Assembly (NCBI RefSeq): GCF_024502345.1
Contig: NZ_JALDNN010000001.1
Strand: one strand, 5' to 3'
Source: Escherichia coli
GTDB taxonomy: Bacteria; Pseudomonadota; Gammaproteobacteria; Enterobacterales; Enterobacteriaceae
DNA length: 64,000 nt
A model generated the notes under the pieces. The model was not told the DNA's origin, searched no databases, and saw only the letters and a program-made list of their open reading frames with translations. Below are positions 277-31,041 of the stretch, in pieces. The first letter of the stretch is position 1; each line of letters begins with the position of its first letter. The position numbers and the translations under genes were made by a program.

Positions 277-1333
277 GGCTTTGTTGAATAAATCAGATTT
301 CGGGTAAGTCTCCCCCGTAGCGGGTTGTGTTTTCAGGCAATACGCACGCTTTCAGGCATACCTGCTTTCGTCATTTTGTTCAGCGCTCGTACCAGGGCCA
401 TAGCCTCTGCAACCTGACCATCGTAGTCACGCAGTGTCAGTGAACCCCCGAACAGCTGTTTTACCCGGTACATCGCCGTTTCCGCTATCGAGCGACGGTT
501 GTAATCTGTTGTCCATTTCCACCGCGCATTACTCCCGGTCATTCGCTGATTAGCCACTGCACGGTTACGGTCTGCATATTCACCGGGCCAGTAACCCGCA
601 CCTTTTCGGGGAGGGATAAGCGCGCTGATTTTCTTACGCCGCAGTTCATCGTGACATAGCCGGGTATCGTAAGCGCCATCGGCGGCGGCTGACCTGATTT
701 TCCGGTGGGTTTGCCGGATTAACCCGGGGAAGGCCTCTGAGTCCGTAACGTTGTTCAGCGACAGGTCAGCGCAGATGATTTCATGTGTTTTACTGTCAAC
801 GGCGAGATGCAGCTTACGCCAGATACGGCGGCGTTCCTGGCCATGCTTTTTGACTTTCCACTCGCCTTCACCGAAGACCTTCAGCCCGGTGGAATCAATT
901 ACCAGGTGTGCGATTTCACCCCGGGTGGGCGTTTTGAAACTGACATTAACCGACTTTGCCCGCCTGCTGACACAGCTGTAATCCGGGCAGCGTAGCGGAA
1001 CGTTCATCAGAGAAAAAATGGAATCAATAAAGCCCTGCGCAGCGCGCAGGGTCAGCCTGAATACGCGTTTAATGACCAGCACAGTCGTGATGGCAAGGTC
1101 AGAATAGCGCTGAGGTCTGCCTCGTGAAGAAGGTGTTGCTGACTCATACCAGGCCTGAATAGCTTCATCATCCAGCCAGAAAGTTATGGAGCCACGGTTG
1201 ATGAGGGCTTTATTGTAGGTGGGCCAGTTGGTGATTTTGAACTTTTGCTTTGCCACGGAACGGTCTGCGTTGTCGGGAAGATACGTGATCTGATCCTTCA
1301 ACTCAGCAAAAGTTCGATTTATTCAACAAAGCC
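277..1333 (-). mobile_element. IS903-group insertion sequence (IS5 family), copy 1, 1057 bp
   Basis: 18-bp terminal inverted repeats GGCTTTGTTGAATAAATC at 277..294 and its reverse complement at 1316..1333; single transposase ORF inside; ends match the IS903 ends known from Tn903. No flanking 9-bp direct repeat (ggcaataac vs cccttgccg). Confidence 0.9.
333..1301 (-). CDS. IS903-type DDE transposase (322 aa)
   Basis: ORF MKDQITYLPDNADRSVAKQKFKITNWPTYNKALINRGS... occupies nearly the whole IS; identical to the protein at 16576..17544. Confidence 0.9.
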   Translation of the reverse strand: MKDQITYLPDNADRSVAKQKFKITNWPTYNKALINRGSITFWLDDEAIQAWYESATPSSRGRPQRYSDLAITTVLVIKRVFRLTLRAAQGFIDSIFSLMNVPLRCPDYSCVSRRAKSVNVSFKTPTRGEIAHLVIDSTGLKVFGEGEWKVKKHGQERRRIWRKLHLAVDSKTHEIICADLSLNNVTDSEAFPGLIRQTHRKIRSAAADGAYDTRLCHDELRRKKISALIPPRKGAGYWPGEYADRNRAVANQRMTGSNARWKWTTDYNRRSIAETAMYRVKQLFGGSLTLRDYDGQVAEAMALVRALNKMTKAGMPESVRIA

Positions 1334-1690
1334 CCTTGCCGCATTACTTAATGCTAATATTGAGTTGGGTAATGACCCAATAATTGGTATAGAAGCCTAT
1401 CCCGGTACCGCGGAGATCCATGCAAAAATGGGATATAAAGTTATCCCGGGTGATGAAAATGCACCACTCAAACGTATGACTCTGCAACCGTCATCTCTTC
1501 CAGAACTGTTTGAATTAAAAAATGGTGAATGGAATTATATTGGTAAATAACTACCAGGAACAATGAGTACTAATATTCAGGTTATACAGATATTTAAACA
1601 ATACCCTGCAATTTACAAAGTAATACTCATTGCGACTTCTTAATTTAAGAAAGCGCAAGGAACGTTTACCCTTGCGCTTATTATAATAAG

Positions 1691-2464
1691 TCAGGCGTCG
1701 ACTTTATCCAGCGGCCATGAATCAAACAGATAGCCATCAAAATAAATATCGTCAACGTTCGAGAATTCCAGCAGACGTTGCTTAACGTTTTCCAGATGCT
1801 GCCACATTGCCAGCTTCGCCGCTCGGGCATCTTTTTTGATTAACGCGGCGAGGATCTGTTTGTGATCGCCCAACCACTCTTTGCGATACAGGCTGTCATC
1901 CAGATGGCTGTGCAACTGGATCCACATTGGATTGTTTTCCCGCCACTGCCAGGACTGACGGAACAGCTCCACCAGCATGCTGTTATGCGTTGCTTCGGCA
2001 ATAGCGAGATGGAACTGCATGTCACCGCTTTCGCTGCTGCCCGGCGCACTGGAAGCCAGTTCACACTCTTCCAGTTGCAATGCCTGACGCATTTTGACGA
2101 TATCTTCGCGGGTAGCCTGCAAAGCGGCAAACTCGGCGATGTTGCTCTCCAATAACTGCCGCGCCTGTAACAGCTCAAAAGGACCGGCATCGTTGCAGAC
2201 GTTGGCATCCGGACTGTCTGTGTTCTGGCTGCCTGAGTTATCAAGAACATAGATACCGGCACCCCGGCGTACTTCCACCAGCCCTTTGATCTCCAGCATG
2301 ATCAGCGCTTCACGTACCACCGTCCGCGTGACATCAAGCATTTCTGCAATTTCACGCTCCGGCGGCAGCCGTTCGCCAGGGTTGTACGGCGTCTTTATGA
2401 TCAGATCGCGGATCATCGCCCCGACTTCCTGGTAAGGTCTTTGCGCAGAGGTGGCAGATTTCAT
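1691..2464 (-). CDS. uxuR: GntR-family repressor of the hexuronate regulon, UxuR (257 aa)
   Basis: Translation MKSATSAQRPYQEVGAMIRDLIIKTPYNPGERLPP... recognised as E. coli UxuR; sits downstream of uxuAB. Confidence 0.9.
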   Translation of the reverse strand: MKSATSAQRPYQEVGAMIRDLIIKTPYNPGERLPPEREIAEMLDVTRTVVREALIMLEIKGLVEVRRGAGIYVLDNSGSQNTDSPDANVCNDAGPFELLQARQLLESNIAEFAALQATREDIVKMRQALQLEECELASSAPGSSESGDMQFHLAIAEATHNSMLVELFRQSWQWRENNPMWIQLHSHLDDSLYRKEWLGDHKQILAALIKKDARAAKLAMWQHLENVKQRLLEFSNVDDIYFDGYLFDSWPLDKVDA

Positions 2465-2500
2465 GGTGTTGTGTCCGTTAGGTGCGGTTAATCAAATTTT

Positions 2501-2540
2501 TGCCGGATGCGGCGTGAACGCCTTATCCGGCCTACAACGG
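2501..2540. repeat. REP element between uxuR and uxuB
   Basis: tgccggatgcggcgtgaacgccttatccggcctac matches the E. coli REP consensus. Confidence 0.6.
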
Positions 2541-2678
2541 GCAATTTTACGGCCCCCGTTAATCTCAAACTATACCATTAGCACTGGAAGTTGGCACGTA
2601 CAGGTGGGCAAAAAAACGAAAACTGGTCAACCAAATATCAGTTTGATTGACCAGTAAGTCTGTAGGGTAATCAGTTAG

Positions 2679-4139
2679 TTACAGCGCAGCCACACACTCG
2701 CGCGCACCGCGTTCGCACAGCTGCTGATATGCCGCCGTCACTGCGCCAACAAAGTCGGCATTCTGCGGCAGATCATCGGCAAAAATACCGCTCAGGCCCA
2801 GCAGCGCTTTCACACGGTCTGCGCCCTGATACTGCGCGTTGATCTTCTGGAACTCCGCCAGCATCGGGTCGACCACGTCAATGGCATTACCCTGCTCATC
2901 CACGCCCTGGGTGTAACGCATCCAGCCAGCCACGCCCAGCGCCAGGTGACGCCAGCTGCCGCCGTTTTGCAGGTGCAGACGCACCGGGTCCAGCAGACGC
3001 TGCGGTAACTTCTGGCTGCCGTCCATCGCAATCTGCCAGGTACGGTGACGCAGAGACGGGTTGCTGAAACGCTCGATCAGCAACGTCGCATAGGCGTTCA
3101 GGTCCGTACCTTCCGGCATCGACAGCGTTGGCGCTTGTTCCTGCATCATCAGGGAGAAGGCCGCTTTGCGATAATCCGGGTTAGTCATGGTGTCGGCAAT
3201 AGTTTCATAGCCGCCGAGGTAACCGAGGTATGCCAGGAAAGAGTGGCTGCCGTTCAGCATACGCAGCTTCATCATTTCGAACGGCACAACGTCTGCAACG
3301 AACTGTGCGCCCACTTTATCCCAGTCCGGACGACCATTAACGAAGTTATCTTCAATCACCCACTGACGGAACGGTTCGCAGGCAATGGCGCACGGGTCGT
3401 AAACACCCAGCTGGTCAGCAATTTCCTGTAAGGTTTCTGGCGTCGCCGCCGGAACGATGCGGTCAACCATGGTGCACGGGAAGGTGACGTTCTCTTCAAT
3501 CCATGCCGCTAGCTGCGCGTCACGCGCCTGAGCCAGCCCCAGTACCGCGACCTTCGCCACATGACCGTTTTCACGCACGTTATCGCAGGACATCACCGTA
3601 AATGCTTTCAGCCCTTTTTCACGACGCAGACGCAAGGCTTCGACGATGTAACCAATCGCGGACTTCGGCGCAGTTGGGTTTTCCAGATCGTGCTTGATCA
3701 GCGGGTTATTGAGATCCAGTTGACCGCTTGCCGCATCAGCGCAGTAGCCTTTTTCCGTGACCGTTAGAGAGACAATCGCCGTTTGCGGACGCGCCATCGC
3801 GTTGAGAATACCTTCGCAGCCATCGATTTCCGGATGCAGCGCTTCTTTCATCGAACCGATAATTTTCAGCTCGGTGCTCTCTGCGCCTTTTTCCGCTACG
3901 GTGTACAGCAGTTGCTGTTTTTTCAGGTTTTCGATCAGCACGCGGTCGTTGCCTGGCATCAGGTTAACTTCGCAGATGCCCCAGTCGCTGTCGGTGCTTT
4001 CCAGCAGATGATGGGTATACAGCGCCTGGTGCGCGCGGTGAAACGCCCCGCAACCGAGATGCACAATGCGTGATTCCAGACGAGAATGATCCCATGACGG
4101 GCGGGCAACCGGCAGATTGCTGTCAACAATAGTAGTCAT
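2679..4139 (-). CDS. uxuB: D-mannonate oxidoreductase UxuB (486 aa)
   Basis: 486-aa ORF immediately downstream of uxuA, same strand; sequence recognised as UxuB. Confidence 0.9.
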   Translation of the reverse strand: MTTIVDSNLPVARPSWDHSRLESRIVHLGCGAFHRAHQALYTHHLLESTDSDWGICEVNLMPGNDRVLIENLKKQQLLYTVAEKGAESTELKIIGSMKEALHPEIDGCEGILNAMARPQTAIVSLTVTEKGYCADAASGQLDLNNPLIKHDLENPTAPKSAIGYIVEALRLRREKGLKAFTVMSCDNVRENGHVAKVAVLGLAQARDAQLAAWIEENVTFPCTMVDRIVPAATPETLQEIADQLGVYDPCAIACEPFRQWVIEDNFVNGRPDWDKVGAQFVADVVPFEMMKLRMLNGSHSFLAYLGYLGGYETIADTMTNPDYRKAAFSLMMQEQAPTLSMPEGTDLNAYATLLIERFSNPSLRHRTWQIAMDGSQKLPQRLLDPVRLHLQNGGSWRHLALGVAGWMRYTQGVDEQGNAIDVVDPMLAEFQKINAQYQGADRVKALLGLSGIFADDLPQNADFVGAVTAAYQQLCERGARECVAAL

Positions 4140-4219
4140 CGTAAACTCCAGAATCCGTCTTCAAAGAGTGACGGCAAGGAAGAAGGAACCGGCACGGCGC
4201 GCAGCCATGCCGGTGGATA

Positions 4220-5404
4220 TTAACGGCTAAAGAAAGCGCGCTGGATCGCCAGTTCGACACCGCGAACTTCGGCCAGGCCTTTCAGACGACCAATTGCGGA
4301 GTAACCTGGGTTGGTTTTCTTCTTCAGGTCGTCCAGCATCTGATGACCGTGGTCCGGACGCATCGGGATCAGGTCTTCTTTGCCTTCCGCTTTACGACGG
4401 TGTTCTTCTTCAACAATCGCTTTCACCACTTCGTACATATCAACGTCACCGTTCAGGTGCGCCGCTTCGTGGAAGGTTTTCGGGTTATCTTCACGCATGG
4501 TGGAGCGCAGATGGGTGAAGTAAATACGCGGACCGAACTGCTTGATCATATCAACCAGATCGTTGTCAGCACGCACGCCGTAGGAACCGGTGCACATGGT
4601 AAAACCGTTTGCCATGCTGTTTACGGTATCAACCATCCACTGCATATCTTCAATGGTGGAAACAATGCGCGGCAGGCCGAGGATCGGGCGCGGCGGATCG
4701 TCCGGGTGAACAGCCATACGCACGCCAACTTCTTCGGCAACCGGAATAATCGCTTTCAGGAAGACGGCAAAGTTTTCGCGCAGTTTGGCTTTGTCGATAT
4801 CTTTGTACAGCTCCAGGTGTTTACGGAACTGGTCGAGGGTGTAGCCTTCTTCCGCGCCCGGAAGACCAGCAATGATGTTACGGGTCAGACGCGCTTTGTC
4901 TTCGTCGCTCATAGTGGCGAAGCGAACAGCAGCCTGAGCAATTTCTTCTTCGGTGTAATCCGCTTCCGCGCCTGGACGTTTCAGGATATGCATTTCGAAT
5001 GCAGCGAATTCGATCTGGTCGAAGCGCAGCGCTTTGGAGCCGTCTGGCAGCACGTATTCGAGGTCAGTACGGGTCCAGTCGAGCACCGGCATGAAGTTGT
5101 AGCACACGGTGCGAATGCCACACTGCGCCAGGTTGCGCAGAGTCTGCTGATAGTTAGCGATCCACTGCTCATAGTTGCCAGTGTGGGTTTTGATATCTTC
5201 GTGAATTGGTACGCTTTCTACGACAGACCACACCAGGCCTGCGTCTTCAACGATCGCCTTGCGTTTGAGGATCTCTTCTACGGACCATACTTCGCCGTTC
5301 GGGATATGGTGCAGCGCGGTAACCACGCCAGTTGCGCCCGCCTGACGGACATCAGCTAAAGAAACCGGATCGTTTGGGCCGTACCAGCGCCAGGTCTGTT
5401 CCAT
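4220..5404 (-). CDS. uxuA: Mannonate dehydratase UxuA (394 aa)
   Basis: ORF contains [28 protein letters not shown]...; start set to the internal ATG at 5404, preceded by gaaagaggaaaaatc (Shine-Dalgarno). Confidence 0.9.
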
Positions 5405-5564
5405 GATTTTTCCTCTTTCACATAGTGGGTTCCACAGCAAAGAGACGCGGAACCCTGGAGTTGTTTAGGTATCCGGATGAACAACCAGACCGCAGCCGTG
5501 GCGTTGCATCGGATGAGATGGCGTATAAGTTCTACCTTTTGGTAAGACATGTCAACCCGAATTC

Positions 5565-5582
5565 TGAAATTGGTTAACCACA
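5565..5582. promoter_or_regulatory. Putative UxuR/ExuR operator upstream of uxuA
   Basis: aaattggttaaccaca contains the perfect palindrome tggttaacca and resembles the AAATTGGT..ACCAATTT hexuronate operator consensus; lies ~160 bp upstream of uxuA. Confidence 0.4.
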
Positions 5583-5741
5583 TCACAAGAATTTCACTCT
5601 CCTGGTTGTTGCTGCAAATTGCAGCAAAAGGTTATCGATGGTTATTGATCAGAGGATGTGACATTCATCGCAACAATGGTTGACCAATTTACATAACATG
5701 TCGCCCAAAATAACAACGGTTCAACCAGGTAAGGTAAAACG

Positions 5742-5947
5742 TTATGCATGTGCTTAACATTCTCTGGGTAGTATTCGGTATCGGCCTGATGCTGGTACTG
5801 ACAAAGACCGCAGGTTCAGACACATTCGCTGCATTAGCAATGCCTCTTAGATAATTTTGACCTGTCAGTAAAAGACACGTTGAAAACCTGGGGTCTGCTG
5901 GAGCTGGTCAACTCCGTGGTTGGGCTGATTATTAGCAAGGTAGCGTA
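5742..5947 (+). pseudogene. gntP: Remnant of gluconate-family permease gene (gntP position): N-terminal ~36 codons plus C-terminal ~30 codons, internal ~1.1 kb missing
   Basis: ORF MHVLNILWVVFGIGLMLVL... hits a stop after 36 codons; a different frame ends ...[25 protein letters not shown] at 5947; both look like the ends of a GntP-type permease divergent from uxuA. Assignment is from recall and synteny. Confidence 0.4.
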
Positions 5948-5949
5948 AA

Positions 5950-6120
5950 AGAACACCAGAGCCTGCCAATGGCAGGCTCTGACTGATGACAAAGTCTAAA
6001 AATGTGCCCGGACAGTCCCCTCGCCCCTCCGGGGAGAGGGTTAGGGTGAGGGGAACAGACCAGCAAAGTGCGCTTTGTTTATGCCAGATGCGACGCTGAC
6101 GCGTCTTATCTGGCCTACAA
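5950..6120. repeat. Intergenic repeat cluster: terminator-like hairpin, GC-rich BoxC-like palindrome, and REP
   Basis: agagcctgccaatggcaggctct hairpin; cccctcgcccctccggggagagggttagggtgagggg; gccagatgcgacgctgacgcgtcttatctggcctac (REP). Confidence 0.5.
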
Positions 6121-6264
6121 AGGGCTAACGTGCAGGTTTTTAGCTTCAGGTAATATTGCGTAACTGCATTAGCAATGCCCTGTGATTTCTTTATTGATAA
6201 ACAAAAGTCGGTGATGCTGCCAACTTACTGATTTAGTGTATGATGGTGTTTTTGAGGTGCTCCA

Positions 6265-6540
6265 GTGGCTTCTGTTTCTATCAGCTGTCCCTCCTGTTCA
6301 GCTACTGACGGGGTGGTGCGTAACGGCAAAAGCACCGCCGGACATCAGCGCTATCTCTGCTCTCACTGCCGTAAAACATGGCAACTGCAGTTCACTTACA
6401 CCGCTTCTCAACCCGGTACGCACCAGAAAATCATTGATATGGCCATGAATGGCGTTGGATGCCGGGCAACCGCCCGCATTATGGGCGTTGGCCTCAACAC
6501 GATTTTCCGCCATTTAAAAAACTCAGGCCGCAGTCGGTAA
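6265..6540 (+). CDS. insA: IS1 InsA (91 aa)
   Basis: [40 protein letters not shown]... recognised as IS1 InsA. Confidence 0.9.
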
Positions 6541-6962
6541 CCTCGCGCATACAGCCGGGCAGTGACGTCATCGTCTGCGCGGAAATGGACGAACAGTGGG
6601 GATACGTCGGGGCTAAATCGCGCCAGCGCTGGCTGTTTTACGCGTATGACAGGCTCCGGAAGACGGTTGTTGCGCACGTATTCGGTGAACGCACTATGGC
6701 GACGCTGGGGCGTCTTATGAGCCTGCTGTCACCCTTTGACGTGGTGATATGGATGACGGATGGCTGGCCGCTGTATGAATCCCGCCTGAAGGGAAAGCTG
6801 CACGTAATCAGCAAGCGATATACGCAGCGAATTGAGCGGCATAACCTGAATCTGAGGCAGCACCTGGCACGGCTGGGACGGAAGTCGCTGTCGTTCTCAA
6901 AATCGGTGGAGCTGCATGACAAAGTCATCGGGCATTATCTGAACATAAAACACTATCAATAA
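6459..6962 (+). CDS. insB: IS1 InsB (167 aa; normally expressed as InsAB' by frameshifting)
   Basis: 167-aa ORF overlapping insA within IS1. Confidence 0.85.
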
Positions 6963-6977
6963 GTTGGAGTCATTACC

Positions 6978-7415
6978 GATTATGTAATCGCCTAAACTCT
7001 TTGATAGCCGACGTTTCAAGCAACATGGATTTGCCTGAATTTAAAGCAGCCATTAATTTATCAAGGGACTGTGCGAACTTACCTGCTGGGTCTGTCGGTG
7101 TATCACGTGTTGTCGAAACAAAATGATAGATGTACATTTCATCTTCATGCTTCGTATTAATGTAAGTAAGATGAATAGCAACCGCATACGCAGGGCCACC
7201 GGACTCACTAAATTCATCACCAACAATTAAGAAATCACCAAAACCATTCATACCCTCTTCTTCATAATTAAGATGAAGATCTGAAAAGAACTCAGAATCG
7301 GGATGGTCAGCATTTCGTCTTTTTTCAAAGCCATCTTTAATTAAAATTCTTTCTGAACCCGAAAAATGTTTTCGATAAGCTTTAGAACAATAGTTAGAAA
7401 TAAATACATGTTTGT
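6978..7415 (-). pseudogene. Partner gene B, C-terminal segment (separated from the N-terminal segment by IS3; 3' end cut by IS1)
   Basis: ORF ...HVFISNYCSKAYRKHFSGSERILIKDGFEKRRNADHPDSEFF...EFRRLHNR is in frame with segment 8674..9082 once IS3 and one TGT copy are removed; the last codon and the stop codon lie inside the IS1 terminus (6973..6977). Confidence 0.7.
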
Positions 7416-7445
7416 TGATCCTACCCACGTAATATGGACACAGAC

Positions 7446-8312
7446 CTAAGCGAGGTTCTGGTTTTCAAATTGTTCCGGACTGAGGCCGCCACACCAACTG
7501 TGCCGCCGCCACCGATTGTAATCACATTCGATATAATTAAACACCGTTGCCCGCATTATTTCCCGGCTGATAAAGTGTTCTCCATGGATACATTCCACTT
7601 TCAGCGAATGAAAGAAGCTTTCCACGCAGGCATTATCGTAGCAGCAACCTTTTGCGCTCATACTTCCACGCAGATTATGCCGCTTCAGTTGCGCCTGATA
7701 ATCTGCTGAACAGTACTGGCCTCCACGGTCCGTGTGAACGATAACGTTCCGGGGCCTCTTACGCCGCCACAGCGCCATCTGCAGGGCATCGCAGGCCAGT
7801 TGCGCCGTCATGCGTGGCGACATTGACCAGCCAATAACGGCACGTGACCACAGGTCAATGACCACTGCCAGATACAGCCAGCCTTCATCTGTACGTAAGT
7901 ACGTGATGTCTCCTGCCCACTTCTGGTTCGGGCCACTGGCGTAAAAATCCTGCTCCAACAGATTTTCTGACACAGGCAGGCCGTGTGCGCGGTAGCTGAC
8001 CGGGCTGAACTTCCGGGAGGCCTTTGCCCTCAGTCCCTGACGGCGCAGGCTTGCCGCCACGGTTTTTACGTTAAAGGGGTAACCCTGAGCACGCAGTTCA
8101 TCCGTCAGGCGTGGGGCACCGTAACGCTGTTTTGACCGGGTAAAAGCCGCGAGGACAACGCTGTCGCAGTGTTGGCGGAACTGCTGACGCGTGCTTATCC
8201 TTGTCCGCCGCTGACACCACGTATACCAGCCGCTGCGGGCCACCCGGAGCACGCGGCACATTGCTTTGATGCTGAACTCAGCCTGATGTTTTTCAATAAA
8301 GACATACTTCAT
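7446..8312 (-). CDS. insF: IS3 transposase OrfB / InsF (288 aa)
   Basis: [36 protein letters not shown]... recognised as IS3 InsF with integrase-core motifs. Confidence 0.9.
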
Positions 8313-8608
8313 TTCAGGCGCTTCGCGAAGTATGTCGCGGCCTTTTGGAGGATAGCCAGCTCTTCATCCCGTTCTGCCAGCTGGCGTTTGAGACGTGCAA
8401 TCTCGGTAGACATCTCCAGTTCACGTTCAGAAGACGTCTGCTGATTTTGCTGTTTACTGCGCCAGTTGTAGAGCTGTGATTCATACAGGCTGAGTTCACG
8501 GGCTGCGGCAGTAACACCGATGCGTTCAGCAAGCTTCAGGGCTTCACTGCGAAATTCAGGCGAATGCTGTTTACGGGGTTTTTTACTGGTTGATACTGTT
8601 TTTGTCAT
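8309..8608 (-). CDS. insE: IS3 OrfA / InsE (99 aa)
   Basis: ORF contains [32 protein letters not shown]...; start set at the MTKTV methionine. Confidence 0.85.
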
Positions 8609-8673
8609 GTGAGTCACCTCTGACTGAGAGTTTACTCACTTAGCCGCGTGTCCACTATTGCTGGGTAAGATCA

Positions 8674-9082
8674 TGTATCCATCCCCAAATCTTTCATGTA
8701 AAGCTTTTGGCTCATCAAACCCGGCATGAATAAAGGTGACTTCATGAACGAGATCTGAATGAAGGAGATTATCAACCTTAGCAATAGTCATACTCTTATC
8801 AAGAAGTATTCCTACAGAAATTTTTTCATACTTACTAAATTCATTTTTTAATAATTGAGCTATACTTTGTCCATCGGTAGAGTGATCACCACATGCCGGA
8901 TTAATGATGACAATAGCCCTACCATCATTTTCTTTTATTGTTTTCAGTGTTCGCTCAAGACCATTGAGAGCCTCTCTCACAGGCTCTATAATTGGAGTAA
9001 AACCTGCCTCAGCCATTACATTAGCAGTGTCTCTAATAGCCAACAGTTCAAATTGTTTCCCACGAAAATAAGGATAATACAT
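8674..9082 (-). pseudogene. Partner gene B, N-terminal segment (136 codons) interrupted by IS3
   Basis: MYYPYFRGKQFELLAIRDTANVMAEAGFTPIIEPVREALNGLERTLK...HERFGDGY then reads into the IS3 end; starts 6 nt after the stop of gene A on the same strand. Confidence 0.7.
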
Positions 9083-9088
9083 AGTTTG

Positions 9089-17920: not shown

Positions 17921-18730
17921 CTAGAAAGAGCCGAGTTCAGAAATCGGTATGTTGAGGAGATGGCTGTTTTTGCTGATAAAGTATTCGAGACTACGGGTTG
18001 TTTCTCCATTCAATGACTTCTCTGCAACAGGCCTGTCTGTATCTTTAATGTGATCTTCTCCTCTGATCTCACTTGTAAAGTCGGGATACAAGACACGAGA
18101 CAGGACCATATTTGAGATTTTTACTTTTTTAAATTTTGCCCAAATCAATAGATCCATCATTGGGATAATATTGTAATCGACAAGTTTTCTTATCTTTGCC
18201 AGTCCAATTTTTTCTGTTTTTACTGGCTCAATTTCATATTCTTTCCTGAGAATGGGTAGCATCGTTTGTAAGGCTGTTATAATTTCTTCATCGCTAGACA
18301 TTCCTAAATCAAATGAAACATACATCTTGCTGCTATTTTGGTTAAGAAAAAAGTCTCTCATAGTTTTTGTTATTGGTTTATTTTTCAACTCTTTTTTGAA
18401 ATCACCATTTTCTTCAAAAAAATCCATGCTAAACATTATTAACTTGTTCTCTAATTTTTTTATATCACCAAAGCTAACCTGAGCAACATGTCTTTGGCCC
18501 TTGCCAAAATGGCCATGATTATTATCTTGTCTGCTTAAAATAGGATTACCTTCAAGGATAGACCTTAAATTTTGATTATCATCTTCCCATCCAAAATTTA
18601 CACTGTCGAAAATCGCTTCTCTAAAGGCAAGCTCGGTATGCAGTTCTTTGATTGTAAGTGATTTTAACTGCTCATAGCTTTCGAGACTAAACCAGATTTT
18701 TAATTCTTCATAAGGGCTTACTACTTTCAT
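17921..18730 (-). CDS. Hypothetical protein (269 aa), AT-rich island cargo between integrase and alpA
   Basis: ORF MKVVSPYEELKIWFSLESYEQLKSLTIKELHTELAFREAIF...; strong Shine-Dalgarno (aggaggg) before the ATG; no recognisable motif. Confidence 0.6.
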   Translation of the reverse strand: MKVVSPYEELKIWFSLESYEQLKSLTIKELHTELAFREAIFDSVNFGWEDDNQNLRSILEGNPILSRQDNNHGHFGKGQRHVAQVSFGDIKKLENKLIMFSMDFFEENGDFKKELKNKPITKTMRDFFLNQNSSKMYVSFDLGMSSDEEIITALQTMLPILRKEYEIEPVKTEKIGLAKIRKLVDYNIIPMMDLLIWAKFKKVKISNMVLSRVLYPDFTSEIRGEDHIKDTDRPVAEKSLNGETTRSLEYFISKNSHLLNIPISELGSF

Positions 18731-18841
18731 TAATCCCTCCTCTGTATTCGAAGCTTGAATGAGTTAACACTGCTTATTTGAATTAATTCTCCCTTAACAA
18801 GGTTGATAAGGGAGAACGATTAATTAACTACTTATTCATAG

Positions 18842-20092
18842 TTAAGTCTTTTTAAAATCAAATGGTGAAACTTGTCGTATTCTAAGGAGGTCAAGGTAAT
18901 CGGCCCACCACTGCAACATAAGCTTTCTCTCATCAAGGTGCTCTGCTTTATGTATGTAGGCAGCACGAACTGAGTTCCGCTCCTGATGGCTCATTTGCCG
19001 TTCAACAGCATCTTTCGACCACAAGCCGGATTCAATCAAGGCACTACAAGCCATAGCCCTGAATCCATGTCCACAGACCTCCACGGTTGTGTCATAGCCC
19101 ATAGACCTCAAAGCCTTGTTTACCGTATTTTCACTCATAGGCTTTCTGAAATCATGGTCGCCAATGAACACAAGTTCATGGTCACCGCTGATCTCTTTAA
19201 TTTCCATCAACACAGCCAATGCCTGACAACTCAAAGGAACAAGGTGTGGAGTTCGCATTTTCGAACCACGGTGCGAATGTTTCACTCCGGGTAATGGCTC
19301 TCGCTCTGCAGGAATAGTCCACATAGCATTCTCTAAATCGATTTCCGACCATCTTGCGAATCTGAGTTCACTGGAACGAATGAAAATGAGCAATGTCAGC
19401 TTTACGGCTAACTTCGTGAGTTTTCTACCCTTGAAACTATCAATTCGTTCTAAAAGTTCTGAGAATCGTTCGAATGGCAAAGCTGGCCTGTGGACTCTTT
19501 TAGCTACCGCAATAGCTCCTGCCATCTCCTGGGCAGGGTTGTAATCTATCAGACCATTCTGGACAGCATATCTCATTACTGCCGTTGTTCTTTGCTGTAA
19601 TCGGGAAGCAACTTCCAGTCGCCCAGAAGCTTCAACAGCTTTGATAGGGGCAAGAAGATCTCTGGTATTAAGTTCGGATATTTTTCTTTTACCAATAGCA
19701 GTAAAGAGACCATCTTCCATGCTTTTTAGAACTCTTTCGCTGTGGGAATTTGACCATTTCCTTTTACAGGCAGTATGCCAGTCTCTCGCAACAGCTTCGA
19801 ATGTCAGGGCTTCGCTTTGCTCAATCTTATCTGCTTTTTTCTTCTCAGAAGGGTCGATACCATCAGATACCAACTTTTTGGCTTCATCTCGCTTCCTGCG
19901 GGCTTCACCAAGAGAGACCATTGGATAAACACCTAATGCTAAAACTTTCTGCTTGCCCCCGAAACGGTATTGGAGTCGCCAGTATTTTGAACCATTGGGG
20001 TTGATCAGCAGGTGCATACCCTGCCCATCTGTGAGTTTGAAAGGTTTGTCGGAGGGCTTGGTAGTCCTAACTTTGATATCAGTGAGTGCCAT
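18842..20092 (-). CDS. P4-like tyrosine integrase (416 aa)
   Basis: MALTDIKVRTTKPSDKPFKLTDGQGMHLLINPNGSKYWRLQYRFGGKQKVLALGVYP... is the typical P4-family integrase N-terminus, with catalytic-domain R...H..R...Y pattern toward the C-terminus; adjacent to the 3' end of leuX. Confidence 0.85.
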   Translation of the reverse strand: MALTDIKVRTTKPSDKPFKLTDGQGMHLLINPNGSKYWRLQYRFGGKQKVLALGVYPMVSLGEARRKRDEAKKLVSDGIDPSEKKKADKIEQSEALTFEAVARDWHTACKRKWSNSHSERVLKSMEDGLFTAIGKRKISELNTRDLLAPIKAVEASGRLEVASRLQQRTTAVMRYAVQNGLIDYNPAQEMAGAIAVAKRVHRPALPFERFSELLERIDSFKGRKLTKLAVKLTLLIFIRSSELRFARWSEIDLENAMWTIPAEREPLPGVKHSHRGSKMRTPHLVPLSCQALAVLMEIKEISGDHELVFIGDHDFRKPMSENTVNKALRSMGYDTTVEVCGHGFRAMACSALIESGLWSKDAVERQMSHQERNSVRAAYIHKAEHLDERKLMLQWWADYLDLLRIRQVSPFDFKKT

Positions 20093-20281
20093 CAGTTGAT
20101 ACCTCCGCTGTTGGTATCAAAATCAATCGAACCGAAGATACCACCAGTTATACCATCATTCGTTGGTATATGTGGATAGAAGTAAGTAGACGTGGACAGA
20201 CTAAGAAAAGCCAAAACTCTGCTTAACTTACTGTTTTTGTGGACTAAAGTAGACGTTAGTAGACTTGAAAAAAACTTTTTA

Positions 20282-20366
20282 TGGTGCCGAAGGCCGGACT
20301 CGAACCGGCACGTATTTCTACGGTTGATTTTGAATCAACTGCGTCTACCGATTTCGCCACTTCGGC
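20282..20366 (-). tRNA. leuX: tRNA-Leu (anticodon CAA), leuX
   Basis: Reverse complement reads GCCGAAGTGGCGAAATCGGTAGACGCAGTTGATTCAAAATCAACCGTAGAAATACGTGCCGGTTCGAGTCCGGCCTTCGGCACCA (85 nt with CCA). Confidence 0.95.
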
Positions 20367-20561
20367 ACTGAAGAGGTATGCGGAAAACGTTGTGGATTAT
20401 ACCTGTCGCACGCCACCATGCAAGCGCCAGCTTGCTCGCACCTCGCTAAGTGCTGAAATTTTCAGCATTGCATACAGCGATGTGTAACCTTTGTCACACT
20501 CCAGGCACCCCGCCCTGCCATGCTCTACACTTCCCAGACAACACCAGAGAAGGACCAAAAA

Positions 20562-21581
20562 ATGTCGATGATAAAAAGCTATGCCGCAAAAGAAGCGGGT
20601 GGAGAACTGGAAGTTTATGAGTACGATCCCGGTGAACTGAAGCCACAAGATGTTGAAGTGCAGGTGGATTACTGCGGGATCTGTCATTCCGATCTGTCAA
20701 TGATCGATAACGAATGGGGATTTTCACAATATCCACTGGTTGCCGGGCATGAGGTGATTGGGCGCGTGGTGGCGCTCGGGAGCGCCGCGCAGGATAAAGG
20801 TTTGCAGGTCGGTCAGCGTGTCGGGATTGGCTGGACGGCGCGTAGCTGCGGGCATTGCGATGCCTGTATTAGCGGTAATCAGATCAACTGTGAGCAAGGT
20901 GCGGTGCCGACGATTATGAATCGCGGCGGTTTTGCCGAGAAGTTGCGTGCAGACTGGCAATGGGTGATTCCACTGCCAGAAAATATTGATATCGAGTCCG
21001 CCGGGCCGCTGCTGTGTGGTGGTATCACGGTCTTTAAACCACTGTTGATGCACCATGTCACTGCTACCAGCCGCGTTGGGGTAATTGGTATTGGCGGGCT
21101 GGGGCATATCGCTATAAAACTTCTGCACGCAATGGGATGCGAGGTGACAGCCTTTAGTTCGAATCCGGCGAAAGAGCAGGAAGTACTGGCGATGGGTGCC
21201 GATAAAGTGGTGAATAGCCGCGATCCGCAGGCACTGAAAACTCTGGCGGGGCAGTTTGATCTCATTATCAATACTGTGAACGTCAGCCTCGACTGGCAGC
21301 CTTATTTTGAGGCGCTGACCTATGGCGGTAATTTCCATACGGTCGGTGCGGTACTCACGCCGCTGTCTGTTCCGGCCTTTACGTTAATTGCGGGCGACCG
21401 CAGCGTCTCTGGTTCAGCAACCGGCACACCTTATGAGCTGCGTAAGCTGATGCGCTTTGCCGCCCGCAGCAAGGTTGCGCCGACCACCGAACTGTTCCCG
21501 ATGTCGAAAATAAACGACGCCATCCAGCATGTACGCGATGGTAAAGCGCGCTACCGCGTGGTCCTGAAAGCCGACTTCTGA
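20562..21581 (+). CDS. ahr: NADPH-dependent aldehyde reductase Ahr/YjgB (339 aa)
   Basis: [45 protein letters not shown]... zinc-ADH signature; start set at the internal ATG at 20562. Confidence 0.9.
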
Positions 21582-30986: not shown

Positions 30987-31010
30987 TCAAAACACAGTGA
31001 TGAAAACGAA

Positions 31011-31037
31011 GGCCGGAGCATGCTCCGGCCTTTTTTA
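31011..31037 (+). terminator. Rho-independent terminator after valS
   Basis: Hairpin ggccggagcatgctccggcc followed by tttttt. Confidence 0.65.
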
Positions 31038-31041
31038 TCTC

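Follow-up and report, generated by a model that had tools for sequence, protein, structure and literature searches.

The stretch of Escherichia coli chromosome described here (64,000 nt, referred to below as the window; its coordinates are used throughout, and it runs in reverse relative to K-12) contains a decayed genomic island next to the tRNA gene leuX. The island, at positions 6978-20281, is very probably what is left of an integrative mobilizable element (IME) that has been eroded by insertion sequences (ISs) and is now fixed and inert. Read from left to right, the window comprises yjiC', uxuR, uxuB, uxuA, a deleted allele of gntP, the last 19 nt of fimH, the island, leuX, ahr (yjgB), yjgR, lptFG and further core genes; position 6978 is the first island base past a copy of IS1. 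leuX is a classical island hotspot, and the atypical base composition expected of a tRNA-linked island is present (40.6% versus about 54% GC): non-IS island DNA, with individual segments of 32-48% GC, stands against 54.9% in the uxu genes and 53.7% in the core to the right of leuX. The first-pass annotation of this DNA had described a decayed, P4-like integrase island at leuX with AT-rich segments and a lost far boundary, and the composition bears out the AT-richness.

The assignment to the IMEs is based on intact relatives of the island, recovered by exact-protein look-ups and by searches of E. coli genomes. In E. coli ET210, the best intact reference (NZ_CP100987.1, about 4,233,980-4,260,656), an element of about 26.7 kb with att repeats at both ends occupies the same leuX site. 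Counted from leuX, it consists of int, DUF6387, AlpA, small genes, a relaxase gene, ankyrin genes, hsdRSM, an IS3-family remnant, a TIR/caspase set, sce7726, sce7725 and RES. Its int-DUF6387-alpA module is 98.6% identical in nucleotide sequence to that of the window, and the hsdM region, the IS3-family remnant, sce7726 and sce7725 are 96-97% identical. Compared with ET210, the window has gained an autotransporter gene and three IS elements; it is without the relaxase region and the ankyrin genes, and also without hsdS, hsdR, RES and attR. In several genomes DUF6387, alpA and a relaxase backbone come after the identical integrase, the PF03432 relaxase lying ~5 kb past the integrase in ET210 and in the fetched loci L005, L006 and L008; no relaxase is found in the window. 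Since a MOB relaxase accompanies the identical integrase in the relatives, where genes for P4 replication and capsid redirection are lacking, the family can be considered one of IMEs, and the element in the window, judged by its gene content, appears to be a decayed derivative of an IME, neither a functional IME nor a P4 satellite.

The leuX gene, encoding tRNA-Leu(CAA), is located at 20282-20366 on the minus strand (ARAGORN; Rfam tRNA, 59 bits), and an Rfam scan of positions 5400-21000 revealed nothing beyond it except a weak REP-type match. The attL core coincides with the 3' end of leuX (20282-20305, minus strand); its last 24 nt recur as attR in ET210, and the last 20 nt, GAGTCCGGCCTTCGGCACCA, are the annotated attP core of P4. 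Immediately downstream of the 3' end of the tRNA gene, starting 189 bp from leuX, lies the intact gene of a P4-type tyrosine integrase of 416 aa (18842-20092, minus strand; Pfam Arm-DNA-bind_3, Phage_int_M and Phage_integrase), which is 58% identical to P4 Int over the full length. An identical integrase occurs in 1,247 indexed blocks of the assembly collection, and in the six places displayed it adjoins leuX. Motif clustering points to candidate arm-type integrase sites around the integrase start, where six of the 19 matches to ATACCANC in the 64 kb fall within 313 bp (19857-20169). These putative sites resemble those of P4 in position but not in sequence, and kindred GATACCATCA repeats adjoin attR in ET210 and L014.

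The next gene of the module, also intact, encodes a 269-aa protein (17921-18730, minus strand) matching Pfam DUF6387 along its full length (1.7e-76), and an identical protein is annotated as multispecies Enterobacteriaceae. It is a conserved backbone gene, present between int and alpA in most of the fetched relatives that retain the int end. The first-pass annotation had listed leuX, an integrase, an orphan open reading frame (ORF) and a truncated alpA in this part; all are present, but the ORF is no orphan, since it belongs to the DUF6387 family. The gene of the AlpA-family excisionase/regulator is indeed truncated (alpA', 17601-17754, minus strand; Pfam Phage_AlpA, 1.1e-15). Its homology to the relatives, in which the full gene encodes 68 aa, ends at 17601 after 51 of the 68 codons, the IS cut being at 17600, and as read up against the IS the alpA-like ORF has 54 codons. 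The same truncated ORF, with the alpA'::IS903 junction, occurs in at least 23 further short contigs, mostly of metagenomic origin, and the decayed form of the island is therefore part of a circulating lineage. Four contigs with this junction (L030-L033) were inspected; they are ENA metagenome assemblies, and three of the four break off no more than ~40 bp past the ORF, presumably on reaching the IS.

The direct-repeat attR of the far boundary is absent from the 64 kb. Probes of 16-25 nt from the leuX 3' end, with up to three mismatches allowed, matched leuX itself and nothing else in the window. In ET210 the 24-nt copy sits 107 bp beyond the RES stop codon, and in L011, L013, L014, L016 and L017 attR likewise comes directly after RES, as a 23-nt copy with one G fewer; in all six relatives the distance from RES is about 107 bp. 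In the window the corresponding stretch has been deleted at IS1. The attR is missing because the IS1-associated deletion removed the DNA past RES, and its former position is accounted for to within about 1.3 kb. Both the deleted far boundary and the lack of a distal leuX repeat, as stated in the first-pass annotation, are thus upheld.

The comparison with the relatives allows a history of the island to be proposed. An IME of roughly 20-27 kb would have entered the 3' end of leuX through its P4-type integrase, using the same core as phage P4. The ancestral order was probably attL (in leuX), int, DUF6387, alpA, small genes, the MOB relaxase gene, ankyrin genes, variable defence cargo (type I restriction-modification (RM), Kiwa, TIR/caspase), sce7726, sce7725, RES and attR. 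The hsdM gene would have been frameshifted, and a segment bearing the autotransporter gene would have taken the place of its 3' third and of hsdS and hsdR. An IS903-group element apparently marks a deletion that begins at alpA codon 51, takes in the relaxase region and stops shortly after the autotransporter gene; the DNA expected to contain an origin of transfer (oriT) is likewise gone from the window. IS3 would have inserted into sce7725, and a deletion associated with IS1 would have taken the tail of sce7725, RES, attR and whatever lay beyond, as far as the last 19 bp of fimH.

The three IS elements differ in their borders. IS1 (768 bp, 6210-6977, plus strand; 99.9% identity to IS1B) is flanked on the left by the last 19 nt of fimH and on the right by the interior of sce7725, with no 9-bp duplication. 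The IS903-group element of the IS5 family (1057 bp, 16544-17600, plus strand) is 87-93% identical to IS5-family copies in L007, L009 and L015, and such elements are called IS903B or ISKpn26 in E. coli annotations; its 9-bp flanks differ, so no target-site duplication is present. IS3 (1258 bp, 7416-8673, minus strand; 99.7-99.8% identity to annotated IS3 copies) is a simple, clean insertion in sce7725 with a TGT target duplication: TGT stands on both sides, and the two flanks overlap by 3 bp in reference coordinates. A further IS903-group copy at 277-1333, associated with a 454-bp deletion inside yjiC, is 100% identical to that at 16544-17600; the two are inverted, 15.2 kb apart and both devoid of target duplications. 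Together they could flip the whole segment from uxu to the autotransporter gene. An inversion between them was considered and rejected: the flanking 9-mers show no pattern of swapped duplications, and the uxu-gntP-fimH order is the ancestral one.

The cargo of the island lies between the IS903-group element and IS1. The DNA at 8674-13149 is colinear, at 98.4% identity, with a locus in which hsdM runs into hsdS and hsdR. In the window only a remnant of the hsdM gene of a type I RM system is left (12128-13149, plus strand; Pfam HsdM_N and N6_Mtase; PADLOC MTase_I, 6e-101). Relative to the intact gene in L014 it has a 1-nt deletion near 12373, and the homology stops past nt 1023 of 1548; with hsdS and hsdR absent from the window, the RM set is not intact. 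A junction of 152 bp (13150-13301), matching neither the hsdM reference nor the autotransporter locus at pheV, connects hsdM' to the acquired autotransporter segment (13302-16543). This junction is shared, at 99.94% identity, with L006, which still has the relaxase. The same segment, split there by IS3, is found in a pheV island of E. coli 2021CK-01361. It encodes an intact AIDA-type autotransporter of 1062 aa with a (PDN)n linker (13318-16506, plus strand; Pfam AC_1 and a full Autotransporter beta-domain; NCBIfam autotransporter barrel, 8e-101), in which both the autochaperone and the beta-barrel domains are complete. The linker is encoded by a 9-nt tandem repeat (15439-15591) that is ~90 nt longer than in 2021CK-01361. 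Exact-protein look-ups for the autotransporter and for one hsdM fragment gave no match; the number of (PDN)n repeats evidently varies, since the copy in 2021CK-01361 is shorter and the protein collection has no exact counterpart. A remnant of an IS3-family transposase ("integrase core") at about 11647-11916 (minus strand) is colinear with annotated pseudogenes upstream of hsdM in ET210 and JS316.

Between this remnant and sce7726 there is an AT-rich variable cargo slot (10141-11235, 32% GC), also present in L014-L017. It contains an intact ORF of 133 aa (10534-10935, minus strand) without a match in Pfam, NCBIfam, PADLOC or PHROGs. In ET210, L011, L013 and L018 the same slot, between hsdM or Kiwa and sce7726, holds a four-gene set encoding a protein with a weak PycTM match, a 262-aa protein, a ThsB-type TIR protein and a caspase (Peptidase_C14). 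The cargo slots of the relatives carry complete type I RM systems, KwaA/KwaB (Kiwa) and ThsB_TIR with caspase and PycTM, with AbiEi/AbiEii nearby in UTME-14. The defence content of the window amounts to the hsdM remnant and one cII-family gene matching PADLOC. The defence-island hallmarks noted in the first-pass annotation are real for the island family, whose members have complete systems, and vestigial in the window, where the defence cargo is all inactivated. Its hsdM remnant, autotransporter, transposase remnant and three types of IS (IS1, IS3, IS903-group) were each located.

The far end of the island is formed by part of a conserved three-gene cassette, sce7726-sce7725-RES, of which the window keeps two genes. 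The first, sce7726, is intact and encodes 300 aa (9089-9991, minus strand; NCBIfam sce7726_fam, 4e-52; PADLOC "cll", 7.5e-20; precomputed Pfam Phage_P4_cII). Its product is 34% identical to P4 cII over 98 aa (BLASTP E 9e-13), the D...EIK motif occurs in both, and P4 cII in turn scores 151 bits on sce7726_fam (cut-off 70); it is a member of the P4 cII family. The second gene, sce7725, is divided by IS3 into a 5' part (codons 1 to about 136; 8674-9082, minus strand), matching NCBIfam sce7725_fam positions 1-133 and colinear with the intact gene in L001, and a 3' part lacking the last ~25 codons (6978-7415, minus strand), which matches positions 141-287 of 312. Homology to the intact gene stops at the IS1 boundary, and an exact look-up of the C-terminal fragment returned solely contigs of <1 kb. 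The third gene, absent from the window, encodes in the relatives a RES-domain protein (Pfam RES, 1.3e-17) with a weak N-terminal HEPN/RES match. The copy of the cassette in the window is dead.

In the first-pass annotation sce7726 and sce7725 were taken for a nuclease-like pair. Both genes are there, as two of the three genes of the cassette, but sce7725 is split by IS3 and its product is a TIM-barrel protein; of the pair only sce7726 looks nuclease-like, by its D...ExK motif. The products of DUF6387, sce7725 and sce7726 have no PDB relative by sequence, and neither sce7725 nor the RES protein of the relatives has a model or match in PADLOC v2. A shared N-terminal "YYP..R..E" motif had prompted the idea that sce7725 might be a remote homologue of the P4 beta protein, and this was rejected: full-length sce7725 has no match to Beta_protein (PF14350) at E up to 10, the BLASTP comparison is not significant, and hhalign with profiles of 31 and 30 sequences gave a probability of 0.5%.

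In the fetched E. coli relatives (ET210, UTME-14, L011-L018) the cassette occupies the attR end of the leuX island family. Conservation of the cassette extends across Proteobacteria: the order cII-like gene, sce7725, RES is kept in Enterobacter and Bradyrhizobium, and also in Halomonas, where IS elements lie between sce7725 and RES. That the three genes stay together in such distant bacteria suggests a joint function. The cassette is a fair candidate for a defence or toxin system not yet characterised. Tentatively, the three genes might constitute an uncharacterised anti-phage or abortive-infection system with RES as the toxic effector, although this is rather less probable than its opposite. 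In that case the window would hold a naturally inactivated copy, linked to gop-beta-cII solely through the cII-like component. In the literature sce7725 and sce7726 were found in passing annotation mentions only, and no functional study was found.

The distribution of the island was surveyed in 5,426 complete E. coli genomes, with a coverage cut-off of at least 80% and positions 6500-20900 as the whole-region query. None of the genomes reached the cut-off for the whole region, so the island is not core DNA conserved across the species. The genes sce7726/sce7725 were found in 18 genomes, and the int-DUF6387-alpA module was covered to at least 80% in 25 and gave any megablast match in 99. The identity of the core to complete E. 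coli genomes is at most 98.6-99.0%, which, with the loss of fim and the density of ISs, had raised the idea of a Shigella origin. This was rejected, as the chimeric ORFs of the window are present verbatim in NCBI as E. coli-labelled proteins from one contig.

Five ORFs of the remnant are still intact, those for the integrase, DUF6387, sce7726, the autotransporter and the 133-aa protein. Lacking attR and a relaxase, and with its excisionase gene cut short, the island would be expected to be incapable of excision or transfer; an AlpA-type protein, SEN1998, is the recombination directionality factor of the island ROD21 (PMC8844411). Several points nevertheless weigh against the proposed history. 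The succession of events, like the part that each IS played in the deletions, is deduced from missing target duplications, and the immobility of the island is likewise a deduction. The search for attR covered 64 kb, and a displaced copy may lie elsewhere in the genome. The relaxase and the full autotransporter do not occur together in any one fetched relative, so that the ancestor is a reconstruction based on L006, L016 and ET210, and the autotransporter segment may be either former cargo of the element or an arrival after fixation.

Among the other explanations, the one that survives best, although it is improbable, sees no separate element here at all but a decayed "GI-leuX" of the K-12/Shigella type (KpLE2-like; fec, yjhATS/nan, fim). 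Bravo et al. 2015 (PMC4374849) treat the whole interval from leuX to gntP as one island, decaying differently in lineages of Shigella and enteroinvasive E. coli (EIEC), and the last 19 nt of fimH are retained beside IS1. However, the fec, yjh/nan and sgc genes are all absent from the window, the relatives have an attR of their own directly past RES, with the nan and fim genes outside that repeat, and an integrase module matched in just 99 of the surveyed genomes, and in 25 at the coverage cut-off, argues for a separate element. Both views can be reconciled by supposing that the IME inserted beside an older fec/nan/fim region, later lost via the IS1 deletion.

A remnant of a P4-like satellite prophage, with hsdM and sce7726/sce7725 as cargo of the P4 int-psu defence hotspot, is still less probable, and this explanation is already largely refuted. 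It draws on the relatedness of the integrase to P4 Int, on the leuX core shared with P4, and on the membership of sce7726 in the family of P4 cII, whose gene adjoins int in P4. Yet no P4 alpha, cI, epsilon, sid, delta or psu was detected among the window ORFs or in family scans, and the five fetched loci that retain DNA downstream of the identical integrase show a relaxase-type backbone and no P4 genes, while in L009 an IS follows directly after the integrase. Moreover, the true P4-like satellite of ET210 is a separate element in tandem beyond attR, with a different integrase that matches the island integrase over about 500 bp only, at 66% nucleotide identity. The term P4-like in the first-pass annotation is accordingly apt for the integrase and the attachment core and not for the rest. 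The satellite of ET210 (about 5107-15980 of L020) carries alpha primase, delta, psu, two hotspot cargo genes and an IS1-split integrase gene, and its position at attR shows serial accretion at the same 24-nt core.

That the island still works in defence, its remaining genes, including sce7726 and the split sce7725, protecting against phage, is scarcely credible: the sce7726, 133-aa and DUF6387 ORFs are intact and sce7726 matches the PADLOC model of the gop-beta-cII system, but hsdM is frameshifted and truncated, hsdS and hsdR are gone, IS3 interrupts sce7725 and IS1 cuts off its end, and RES is missing from a cassette whose conserved grouping suggests that its genes act jointly.

The decay of the IME is not the only change in this part of the chromosome. 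The gntP allele at 5745-5950 is reduced to the first ~57 bp and the last ~90 bp of the gene, separated by ~54 bp of unalignable filler (5802-5855). The DNA at 1333-6209, including this deletion allele, is colinear with E. coli 20KM2222 at 99.1% identity, and the gntP deletion is therefore older than the decay of the island. An exact 16-nt direct repeat, CTGCATTAGCAATGCC, occurs in the filler (5829-5844) and near the 3' end of fimH (6164-6179), and may reflect templated filler or chance. To the right of leuX, amid core genes, there is a low-GC stretch (31-43%) at 31000-37000, corresponding to the yjgL region in E. coli annotation; the segment enclosing it (21000-45999) is covered to at least 80% in 2,983 of the 5,426 complete genomes, with a best identity of 98.6%.

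The region is otherwise an ordinary decayed island of a known kind, in which the cassette is the one lead worth keeping. It offers a worked example of how three insertion sequences may turn a mobile, defence-carrying island into fixed DNA, and the definition of the island family, with attR 107 bp past RES, should aid the annotation of such islands. The cassette of cII-like, TIM-barrel and RES proteins is widespread, and two of its three genes are without a PADLOC v2 match.

Among known systems, the leuX island of Shigella and EIEC (PMC4374849) has the same locus, between leuX-yjgB (ahr) and gntP-uxuABR, and has likewise undergone IS-mediated loss of fim. The sister layout in L016, int'-IS5-autotransporter'-IS5-sce7726-sce7725-RES-attR-...-fimD', fits the "fimD'-fimFGH only" pattern of that study. 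The study differs in following fec, yjh and fim, with ISs and "phage remnants" undrawn, and describes neither the IME backbone nor the sce7726-sce7725-RES cassette.

The EARL (ROD21-like) islands, such as ICEKp258.2 and ROD21, combine an AlpA-family excision factor, adjacent to a DUF6387 gene, with a relaxase and defence-type cargo that varies (PMC10763509), and the AlpA-type protein of such islands binds the att regions (PMC8844411). They are located at Asn tRNA genes and carry TraD and a MOBQ relaxase, whereas the island described here is at leuX, and in them the alpA-DUF6387 pair lies at the opposite end from int. By insertion site and gene content, the alpA-DUF6387 pairing is the only EARL feature found in this island.

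The cassette shares with gop-beta-cII ("gop_beta_cll" in PADLOC/DefenseFinder) a cII-family component, and both are three-gene sets on elements integrating at leuX. It differs in that sce7725 is no Beta_protein homologue, a RES protein takes the place of gop, and the genes form a co-directional operon, whereas gop-beta and cII of P4 are convergent.

Phage P4 itself (NC_001609) differs from the island by its replication, immunity and capsid-redirection genes, all lacking in the window, by its arm repeat motif (TTGGGGGCAT in P4, ATACCANC here), and by the position of cII, which adjoins int in P4, while the island has its cII-like gene at the far end. What the two have in common is the integrase (58% identity), the identical 20-nt leuX core, a gene of the cII/sce7726 family and repeats around the integrase start.

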